From the IMG/VR virus record IMGVR_UViG_2713897075_000003, positions 1 to 24,702 of that record: DNA of 24,702 bases, one strand, 5' to 3'. This stretch comes from a virus. Its lineage: Duplodnaviria; Heunggongvirae; Uroviricota; Caudoviricetes. A model generated the notes under the pieces. That model was not told the DNA's origin, ran no database searches, and worked only from the letters and a program-made list of their open reading frames with translations. Shown here piece after piece: positions 11,620 to 13,315 of this stretch (positions are counted from its first letter, which is position 1; each line of letters begins with the position of its first letter). The translations under genes and the position numbers were made by a program.

Positions 11620-11787
11620 ATGACCGTTCGCTACCTCAACTTTCAAATCCAGAACATCACTGGCGGTTGCTATGACTGGTTTGTCACTCTCGGAAAAGAA
11701 GTGATCACCGGGAAGCTGGATGAAGTGAAAGCTAAAGCAATGGCCTACGCCTGCAAGCAAGCCAGGAAGAAATCCGCCAAAGCATAA
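11620..11787 (+). CDS. Possible small basic protein (55 aa) preceded by a coupled 29-codon upstream ORF (11534..11623)
   Basis: Hand translation MTVRYLNFQIQNITGGCYDWFVTLGKEVITGKLDEVKAKAMAYACKQARKKSAKA. Upstream ORF has RBS AAGGAG and its TGA overlaps this ATG. Both are below the track cutoff and speculative. Confidence 0.2.
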   Translation: MTVRYLNFQIQNITGGCYDWFVTLGKEVITGKLDEVKAKAMAYACKQARKKSAKA

Positions 11788-11833
11788 AATACTGACTGTT
11801 GCGCCCTGGCATTATCGTGGGGTATATTTCTAC

Positions 11834-11914
11834 GGCACCTTAGAAAAACGGGTGCCGGGATTGGAACCCCGGATAATGTCAAAGGCGACACAGACGCCGA
11901 AAGCGTCTTTTTTT
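11834..11914 (+). ncRNA. Candidate structured small RNA / 3' UTR element ending in an intrinsic terminator; possible c4-like antisense regulator of the downstream icd-like/ant operon
   Basis: Hairpins GGCACC(11 nt)GGTGCC and CCGGG-ATTGGAAC-CCCGG followed by the terminator hairpin. The loop ATTGGAAC is complementary to GGTTCC (11997-12002) and GTTCCAAC (12017-12024) in the leader of the downstream operon. No expression data. Confidence 0.25.
11893..11914 (+). terminator. Rho-independent terminator (GACGC-cgaaa-GCGTC followed by T7)
   Basis: 5-bp GC-rich stem, 5-nt loop, seven consecutive T residues. Confidence 0.6.
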
Positions 11915-12099
11915 GTGTCATGCCATCGCACAGCCATACGTAGCGTTTAGCTCAGAGATCAATGGTAGTGCTGGCTGGGCTGCCGAAAGGCAGGCCGGTT
12001 CCCTTTGACGCCGGTAGTTCCAACCCAGTCAGTGCTACCGCCATTGAGATTGGAACCTCACGCGGTAGCTCCTTAACTTAGTCAAAGGAGGCTGCCAAT

Positions 12100-12315
12100 A
12101 TGGCTACTATCCCTACCCCAACTCATTCTGAATTTATCTGGCGTTTCTATTCCTGCCAAAAACACCTGTATATCTGCGTCATGGCTGCTACCGAAGCAGA
12201 GGCGCGCTCATACCTTCCCAAAGAACCCTGCATTTTTGCTGCTCGCTTCACTCTTGATGCGATGGAGATCCTCAATTACTGGAATCTACCGATGAACTGC
12301 GTGGAGGTGCACTGA
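12100..12315 (+). CDS. Small ORF (71 aa) translationally coupled to the antirepressor gene; icd-like position
   Basis: Strong RBS AAGGAGG 8 nt upstream of ATG 12100; its stop overlaps the ATG of the Rha gene (ctgATGaat). Confidence 0.5.
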   Translation: MATIPTPTHSEFIWRFYSCQKHLYICVMAATEAEARSYLPKEPCIFAARFTLDAMEILNYWNLPMNCVEVH

Positions 12316-13256
12316 TGAATCTGTCCATCTCTCAAAAAGCGACAATGACCAGCATTGAGATCGCGGAACTGGTAGGAAGTCGCCAAGATAGTGTGAAGAG
12401 AACTATCGAAACACTGGCTAAAAAGAGTGTGATCCAATTTCCACAATCTGTGGAAATTGAAAATAAACAATCAGTTGGCCCTCGTCGATTTTCCAAGGCT
12501 TACATATTTGAAGGCGAACAAGGAAAACGAGACAGCATCATTGTCGTCGCGCAGCTCTCTCCGGAATTCACCGCCCGGCTGGTGGACCGCTGGCGCGAAC
12601 TGGAGAATGCCCGGGTACAGTTAAAATCAAAAGCCGAAATCCTGGCTGAAATGGCGCAAATGCATCTTGAGCATGAACGCCGGATCAACGCCGTAAATGC
12701 CCAGGTAGCCGAGGTATCAGCACAAGTATCGATGGTCGCTGAAACACTCGAGCAAATAAAGAAAGGCAATATTCCGGAAGGCTACATTGGCTACCGCCAG
12801 CTGGCGGCGAAATGTGGCCTGACTGAAGCCAAATGTCGCAACCTGGTTAACGCTTTCCGGATTCCCACCGATACGCATGAGTTTTTAACTCCAGATGGTT
12901 TGCTTGCGCGACGCTCCATTGTGGCCCTGGCCCCCTTCCGGAAAGCCTTTAAGCAGGTGATGTCGGAGGCAGAACCACGCAATAAACGCTGGTATCATCC
13001 AAAGATGGGGATGTTTCAGGCAATCCACCATCCTGTGCCTGAAAGCCCAAAGGATAATCTGTCACTACATACCGTCAGAGAGAAGATCAGGACTGGATAC
13101 GCAACAGTGTGTCGTCGTTCTTCCTGGCCTGAAGGTATATGGGTGTGGCCCGAAGGTGGATCACGAAAGCACTGGCGCACCATCCGTGACGGGAAAATCC
13201 ATGCTATTGATTTAGCTCCAGAGGATGTTATTGCTATGGACTGGATTGTTAGTTAA
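12315..13256 (+). CDS. Phage regulatory protein Rha / antirepressor (Ant-like), 313 aa
   Basis: N-terminus MTSIEIAELVGSRQDSVKRTIETLAKK...RRFSKAYIFEGEQGKRDSIIVVAQLSPEFTARLVDRWRELE is typical of Rha-family antirepressor N-domains. Confidence 0.7.
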   Translation: MNLSISQKATMTSIEIAELVGSRQDSVKRTIETLAKKSVIQFPQSVEIENKQSVGPRRFSKAYIFEGEQGKRDSIIVVAQLSPEFTARLVDRWRELENARVQLKSKAEILAEMAQMHLEHERRINAVNAQVAEVSAQVSMVAETLEQIKKGNIPEGYIGYRQLAAKCGLTEAKCRNLVNAFRIPTDTHEFLTPDGLLARRSIVALAPFRKAFKQVMSEAEPRNKRWYHPKMGMFQAIHHPVPESPKDNLSLHTVREKIRTGYATVCRRSSWPEGIWVWPEGGSRKHWRTIRDGKIHAIDLAPEDVIAMDWIVS

Positions 13257-13315
13257 ATGCTGCATCCCCGGCGACGCCGGGGATTTAACTGCCAAATAAT
13301 CGGATTATCCGCACG

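Follow-up and report, generated by a model that had tools for sequence, protein, structure and literature searches.

The antisense RNA C4 is a stable RNA of about 77 nt that is excised from its operon transcript by RNase P. In satellite phage P4, the leader-derived CI RNA is likewise processed and has complementary targets on both sides in the same transcript (seqA and seqC), but it acts through premature transcription termination and controls replication genes and not an icd-ant pair. In phages P1 and P7, C4 blocks expression of ant and underlies heteroimmunity (PMC8198154, PMC6906374, PMC12197685), and catalogues have listed C4 and the a1/b1 motif since 2010 (PMC2864571). D6-like plasmids are reported to carry homologues of c4, icd and the antirepressor gene and a second c4-icd region (PMC6799933). 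Here we analyzed a 24.7-kb stretch of viral DNA (IMG/VR record IMGVR_UViG_2713897075_000003, 24,702 nt; hereafter the window), which belongs to a D6-like, P1-related phage-plasmid of Escherichia coli. The leader and the two genes at 11788-13256 are, with high probability, a P1-type immI operon of this phage-plasmid, in which C4 would silence icd and ant.

The isrK-orf45(STnc1160)-anrP region of Gifsy-1 in Salmonella is a further relative, and the comparison with it rests on its published description (PMC4825925). Like the window, it has a 5' small RNA (sRNA) of the IsrK family with its own terminator, read-through into an RNA that is processed to about 80 nt and has complementarity to IsrK, and an antirepressor-like gene reached by translational coupling; it differs in that icd is missing, the coupling orf45 overlaps the processed RNA, and the model stresses activation by IsrK, not repression by the processed RNA (PMC4825925). 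In Gifsy-1, pairing of IsrK with the downstream processed region activates anrP via the coupled upstream open reading frame (ORF), compensatory mutations connect IsrK G28/G31 with the downstream C162/C159, and the authors regard SeqA as a structural homologue of IsrK (PMC4825925). Shiga toxin (Stx)-converting and other lambdoid phages (for example, LC710660 and phiP27) carry an isrK-C4 tandem directly 5' of a gene for a regulator or antirepressor; the leader DNA is about 68-70% identical, and both RNAs are annotated in the LC710660 record. These isrK-C4-Rha/Roi modules differ from the window in that no icd lies between the tandem and the gene, and the phages are integrated and not plasmid prophages.

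The leader of the window spans 312 bp (11788-12099) between the stop codon of a 55-aa ORF and the ATG of a 71-aa ORF, in agreement with an earlier note on this DNA that described a non-coding leader of about 300 bp. That note read the locus as an analogue of immI, stated that it could not be aligned to c4, and named a covariance-model search as a check. This search yielded a full-length match to the Rfam C4 model RF01695 at 11958-12045 on the plus strand (77.1 bits against a gathering threshold (GA) of 45; E = 9e-14; model positions 1-87 of 87). The immI outline of the note is thus retained, with the C4 score, the 56% identity of the 71-aa product to P1 Icd and the P1 order of elements, as homology in place of analogy. 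From the annotated ends of c4 in the P1 record, the mature C4 is predicted at about 11964-12042. It would have a 16-bp acceptor-like stem followed by G-C-C-A (12040-12043), as expected of an RNA that RNase P cleaves, like P1 c4. The predicted fold consists of a closing stem enclosing two hairpins (minimum free energy (MFE) -46.7 kcal/mol for the predicted mature RNA), and a comparison of 10 lineage representatives revealed compensatory double changes at 12 of its 23 predicted pairs. In the closing stem, the 3' strand GCTACCGC (12034-12041) is also complementary to GCGGTAGC (12062-12069) between a2 and b2; this second pairing co-varies, with CCACCGC/GCGGTGG in RCS47-type and CCTGC/GCAGG in P1-type leaders, and may reflect a different fold adopted by the precursor before processing.

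Within C4, b' (CCTTTGAC, 12002-12009, plus strand) occupies the loop of the second internal hairpin and a' (GTTCCAA, 12017-12023, plus strand) a single-stranded junction, with predicted opening costs of 0.97 and 0.01 kcal/mol, respectively. In the covariance model they align to the columns occupied by b' (TCACTAAC) and a' (CTGTCAA) of P1. All exact complements of at least 6 nt that 11958-12045 has elsewhere in the leader were listed, and all four target sites, two on each side of C4, were exact complements, over 7 nt for a' and over 8 nt for b'. On the 5' side, a1 (TTGGAAC, 11861-11867, plus strand) lies in a hairpin loop with an opening cost of 0.01 kcal/mol, and b1 (GTCAAAGG, 11878-11885, plus strand) in the linker 5' of a terminator. 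On the 3' side, in the icd-ant mRNA, a2 (TTGGAAC, 12050-12056, plus strand) is in the loop of a small hairpin with the stem UGAG/CUCA, and b2 (GTCAAAGG, 12081-12088, plus strand) overlaps the Shine-Dalgarno sequence (SD) of icd, AAGGAGG (12085-12091), which is followed after 8 nt by the ATG. Across the whole window, both copies of the 9-mer ATTGGAACC, which contains TTGGAAC, and all three occurrences of GTCAAAGG or its complement CCTTTGAC were confined to one 250-bp stretch, against chance expectations per window of 0.32 and 0.84 occurrences, respectively.

All sequence features listed in the earlier note were recovered, each at or within one base of its position, including the second ATTGGAACC copy at 12049-12057, which lies 28 nt 5' of the SD where about 30 nt before the ribosome-binding site (RBS) had been given. 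Its pairing scheme fared differently. The note had proposed the loop of the second 5' hairpin as the regulator, with GGTTCC at 11997-12002 and the bases at 12017-12024 as its targets. The complementarity of TTGGAAC and GTTCCAA is exact over 7 bases and not 8, as A11860 faces C12024, and that of GGAACC (11863-11868) with GGTTCC is present and lies partly within stems. Both proposed targets are inside a bona fide C4, so the roles are reversed. The hairpin loop as antisense regulator was rejected, as the identical copy at 12049-12057 cannot pair with the loop; with C4 as the antisense, both ATTGGAACC copies are targets and are therefore identical to each other and not complementary. The entire b set (b' at 12002-12009 with 11878-11885 and with 12081-12088 over the icd SD) had been missed.

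The 5' part of the leader encodes a second structured RNA. The Rfam isrK model (RF01394) matched 11835-11913 on the plus strand with 62.7 bits (GA 50), and the c4-a1b1 model (RF03163), searched at a relaxed threshold, matched the same place (11822-11875) with 22.4 bits, below its GA of 46.7. In phage P1 the scores were mirrored (c4-a1b1 51 bits, isrK 35 bits, C4 68.8 bits), so both models describe one homologous element in two lineages, and the IsrK-family sRNA of the window is the equivalent of the P1 a1/b1 element. It folds into hairpin 1 (11835-11855), hairpin 2 (11856-11871, with the loop AUUGGAAC at 11860-11867) and an intrinsic terminator, found by terminator scan and by folding, with its stem at 11892-11908 followed by a T run. 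The note's two stem-loops and canonical terminator at 11834-11914 correspond to this element. The two 5' hairpins and the terminator were kept in all 28 distinct variants, and compensatory changes between lineages occurred in the stems of hairpin 1 and the terminator. The criteria for IsrK include Hfq binding and trans-activation of translation of a downstream antirepressor. Both have been described for Gifsy-1 only (PMC4825925). Upstream, a probable constitutive sigma-70 promoter of the operon (11799-11828, plus strand) was assigned by alignment to the annotated P1 promoter P1c4/P51b: a -35 box TTGCGC (11799-11804), an 18-nt spacer and a -10 box TATATT (11823-11828), which aligns with the -10 of P1c4/P51b, with a start near G11835, where the isrK model begins. 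A consensus promoter scan did not call it because the -35 box matches at only three of six positions.

The first gene after the leader, icd (12100-12315, plus strand), encodes a 71-aa homologue of the P1 cell-division inhibitor Icd (56% identity; NCBIfam phage_ICD_like NF033153, 49.5 bits with a cut-off of 25; phrog_1426, E = 1e-40). The second, ant (12315-13256, plus strand), encodes a 313-aa Rha/Roi-type protein, a presumed antirepressor on the basis of its operon position. Its product matched PHROG 63 'anti-repressor Ant' (E = 3e-60) and, by tblastn, was 85% identical to D6 orf82 and about 53% identical to Roi of Stx phages over the N-terminal 146 aa; its RefSeq name is Rha family. The gene has its own SD, GGAGG (12303-12307), and the sequence TGATG (12313-12317) joins the icd stop codon to the ant ATG, the overlap that the note had seen.

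The order of elements in the window (promoter, a1, b1, terminator, c4, a2, b2, icd and ant, all on one strand) matched immI of P1 (NC_005856, 48.1-49.7 kb) site by site. Spacings were similar, with 17 nt between a1 and b1 (14 nt in P1), 31 nt between a2 and b2 (29 nt in P1) and 11 nt from the end of b2 to the icd ATG in both. In the P1 record, a2 lies 3 nt past c4, b2 carries the remark 'repression of icd ant translation', and the icd/ant1 junction is ATGA. The two loci share the C4 Rfam family and Icd, whereas the a and b sequences are wholly different, the antirepressors are unrelated, and the neighbours are ref and small ORFs in the window and sim in P1.

With Icd as the probe, 86 loci were fetched and their leaders aligned, and sites were counted over 88 related leaders. 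The sites a', a1 and a2 changed jointly, as did b', b1 and b2, in 87 of the 88 loci, in two cases through G:U pairs. In the lone exception (IMGVR_UViG_2778261639_000014), a1 was TTGAGAC while its own a' and a2 were of the GGAAC type; this locus appears to have arisen by recombination, with the crossover point between a1 and c4. The D6/RCS47-type leaders fell into six classes by their a and b sequences, and the class of the window (a = GGAAC, b = GTCAAAGG) comprised 18 loci. Two a alleles and two b alleles occurred in all four possible combinations. Five P1-type modules contained two a alleles and four b alleles with perfect antisense/target matching, and eleven specificity classes were found in all across about 90 related loci. 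In the RCS47-type loci (L006, L043 and others), the a1-a' pairing is perfect and a2 needs one G:U pair, the ORF from the C4 AUG continues in frame into icd, and a remnant of the P1 C1 operator (TCTAATAAATT), absent from the window, lies 5' of the promoter.

The same pattern was observed between close relatives. Phage D6 (NC_050154; orf83 is icd and orf82 is ant) and D6-like plasmids such as pYU39_89 have the same genes and RNAs as the window at 95% DNA identity, and D6 spans 78% of the window. The D6 sites, TTGAGAC and GCAAAAGG, each differ from TTGGAAC and GTCAAAGG of the window by 2 nt, in all three copies; 12 of the 17 leader differences from D6 fell within the 45 site bases (hypergeometric P = 7e-8). 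The predicted duplex energies were -8.8 and -12.7 kcal/mol for the cognate pairs and -2.3 and -6.5 kcal/mol for the window C4 on the D6 targets, so cross-pairing is predicted to be weak; the Ant proteins are only 85% identical. A plasmid 98.8% identical at the locus showed 8 leader differences, 6 of them in b1, b' and b2. Concerted site changes even at this identity require ongoing selection for pairing. The co-variation resembles the heteroimmunity of P1 and P7, which has been attributed to minor differences in c4 and in the sites it targets (PMC6906374, PMC12197685).

Folding and co-folding, the other computational check named in the note, gave the hairpins, the terminator and the accessible sites reported above. 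Whole-RNA duplexfold was uninformative (29 of 300 and 55 of 300 shuffles were as good) because it ignores intramolecular structure, and it was replaced by opening energies and short-site duplexes.

Taken together, the family membership of the two RNAs and of Icd, the site geometry, the accessibility of the sites in the predicted folds and their co-variation suggest the following scheme for the window. Transcripts would start near 11835 from the constitutive promoter at about 11799-11828, and most would stop at the intrinsic terminator to give an IsrK-family RNA of about 79 nt containing a1 and b1. Read-through transcripts would extend over c4, icd and ant, and C4 (about 11964-12042) would be cut from them, as in P1. 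Its a' (GUUCCAA) and b' (CCUUUGAC) would pair with a2 (12050-12056) and b2 (12081-12088) of the mRNA. Since b2 overlaps the icd SD, this pairing would keep icd untranslated, and since the ant start overlaps the icd stop codon and lies downstream on the same transcript, ant would be silenced too, through the loss of translational coupling and probably also Rho-dependent polarity, as in P1. Once accumulated in a lysogen, C4 would hold the antirepressor and the division inhibitor off and so maintain lysogeny, and it would silence the same operon of an incoming phage with the same a and b sequences, giving superinfection immunity, in line with the immunity scheme of P1 C4 (PMC8198154). The a and b sequences would set the specificity of this immunity, with the class of the window differing from D6. 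Competition of a1 and b1 for C4, in cis when part of the precursor and in trans when on the short RNA, would provide a route to derepression comparable to IsrK of Gifsy-1.

Several points weigh against this scheme. Every mechanistic step proposed for this element comes by homology, from P1 and Gifsy-1. The strong terminator 5' of c4 means that C4, icd and ant all rely on read-through. The product of ant matched Pfam pRha (PF09669) over the whole profile (residues 11-98) with 28.1 bits, below the GA of 29.9, and showed no homology to P1 Ant1 or Ant2 by BLASTP (best E 0.32), so that the Rha antirepressor named in the earlier note is upheld for a Rha/Roi-type N-terminus and the PHROG 63 match, and not for the Pfam threshold or for a relation to P1 Ant1; a target repressor for this protein was not identified in the window. 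A P1-type C1 operator (ATTGCTCTAATAAATTT, the P1 sequence as query) had no match in the window with up to three mismatches, a result that leaves a D6-specific operator possible, and there is thus no visible counterpart of the second, C1-controlled promoter of P1 (Op51/P51a). In D6-type leaders, the icd SD is predicted to be paired to an upstream anti-SD, GCUCCUU (12068-12074 with 12085-12091; opening cost 8.1 kcal/mol), a hairpin that is missing from RCS47- and P1-type leaders; with the SD locked in this way, C4 may not be the sole brake on icd. Finally, the MFE fold of the full read-through leader pairs a1/b1 with a'/b' in cis, which would compete with C4 maturation.

This last fold, which is like 'structure A' of PMC4825925, also counts for the strongest alternative, in which the logic of Gifsy-1 dominates: the short IsrK-like RNA would be the main regulator, and icd-ant would be switched on when a silent read-through fold, with a1/b1 paired to the C4 region in cis, is opened or when C4 is soaked up in trans. 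The isrK score of 62.7 bits and the conservation of the terminator in all lineages favour it, as does the tracking of a'/b' by a1/b1 in 87 of the 88 loci, which marks a1 and b1 as real pairing sites under selection. Trans-activation by IsrK and the compensatory mutations are experimental results in Gifsy-1 (PMC4825925). On the other hand, c4 is an established repressor in P1, and a2 and b2 of the window are placed over the icd RBS in exactly the P1 manner; Gifsy-1 has no icd and a coupling ORF over its C4-like RNA, the equivalent of which in the window (11962-12081) is not conserved between lineages. Dominance of the short RNA is a real possibility that falls short of an even chance. Of all alternatives it is the closest to the hairpin-loop proposal of the earlier note, and it adds to the C4 model and does not exclude it.

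A tentative extension, which we regard as somewhat less likely again, has three parts. The IsrK-like RNA would be a dedicated decoy of C4, and terminator read-through would set the decoy:antisense:target ratio and with it the point at which the antirepressor is released. The a and b sequences would be independently exchangeable 'keys' reshuffled among P1-, RCS47- and D6-type phage-plasmids by recombination and compensatory mutation, giving many heteroimmunity classes, and each D6-like plasmid would carry two orthogonal C4-icd-Rha switches. A second module of this kind was observed outside the window: the closest plasmid, NZ_CP116996.1, has at about 47.98-49.16 kb (L092, 1975-3160, minus strand) a P1-type c4-a1b1/C4/icd/Rha-family module with orthogonal sites (a = TTAGCAG, b = ACGAATG), which argues for two independent C4 switches per D6-like plasmid; published work gives this second region no more than a brief mention.

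C4 might instead act like the CI RNA of P4, with target pairing leading to premature transcription termination and not to a translational block. Like C4, P4 CI is a leader RNA that undergoes processing and is flanked by its targets, which in P4 are seqA and seqC, and in the window a terminator directly follows a1/b1. The position of b2 over the icd SD points to translational occlusion, however, and the terminator scan found no terminator-like site after a2/b2. Biere et al. reportedly found in 1992 that the transcriptional effect in P1 is secondary to the translational block, which also counts against this mechanism, and we consider it improbable.

In plasmids near-identical to the window, RefSeq/PGAP (Prokaryotic Genome Annotation Pipeline) annotation places the coding sequence (CDS) of a 39-aa 'ash family protein' exactly over C4 (11962-12081, plus strand), and the D6 record has a minus-strand 'orf84' (11745-11921, opposite strand) that spans IsrK and C4. 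The 39-aa ORF could be a real protein or a leader peptide that opens the icd SD like orf45 of Gifsy-1, which has been shown to be translated (PMC4825925); it ends 18 nt before the icd ATG, with its last codons over the predicted anti-SD at 12068-12074. Its AUG is at the base of a stem within the -46 kcal/mol structure, and the substitutions follow RNA pairing. The ORF over C4 has 14, 31, 37, 39, 41 or >56 aa depending on the lineage, shares the icd reading frame in one lineage but not in another, and had no match in NCBIfam or Pfam. Given the variable length and the lack of a family match, a protein-coding ORF over C4 was rejected as very unlikely, and both the 'ash family protein' CDS and orf84 are probably spurious calls on RNA genes. 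That the module is an inactive remnant with inherited but unused complementarities can be dismissed as extremely unlikely, as nothing specific speaks for it beyond a 'partial' PGAP flag on the Rha gene of one near-identical plasmid, all module parts are intact in the window, and the sites change in concert even at 98.8% plasmid identity.

The operon lies downstream of a Ref-like nuclease gene and the 55-aa ORF, both on the same strand, and no tRNA or tmRNA was found by a tRNA scan of the window. A GC-rich 7-bp hairpin, CCCCGGC/GCCGGGG (13266-13282), with a weak T tail lies 10 nt past the ant stop codon; the terminator scan did not call it, and it may mark the end of the operon. Several complete E. 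coli plasmids of about 90 kb share 98.8% identity with the locus. In NZ_CP116996.1, PGAP flags the Rha-family gene (L091, 12674-13384) as 'incomplete, missing C-terminus', while the ORF is intact in the window and in D6, with 313 aa. Two short contigs of a 'Bacillota bacterium' metagenome-assembled genome (JAFAFU010000035.1 and JAFAFU010000019.1) contained both types of enterobacterial immI module and are most likely mis-binned phage-plasmid fragments.

The system is already known, and its recognition here is correct and brings no new principle; only the allele diversity and the decoy reading are mildly new angles. The practical value is in annotation and in the reading of phage-plasmid biology. 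Records of D6 and of near-identical plasmids label the two ORFs as 'host cell division inhibitor Icd-like protein' and 'anti-repressor Ant' or 'Rha family transcriptional regulator', and public records of D6-like plasmids leave both RNA genes unannotated, and some, as described, place a CDS on C4. The matched co-variation of three sites cleanly confirms the C4 pairing model from natural variation. If the joint decoy and key reading is true, it would unify IsrK of Gifsy-1, a1/b1 of P1 and seqA of P4 as one anti-antisense device. An immunity type can be assigned from the a and b sequences, and it may predict superinfection and co-residence among P1-, D6- and RCS47-like phage-plasmids, several of which carry resistance genes.

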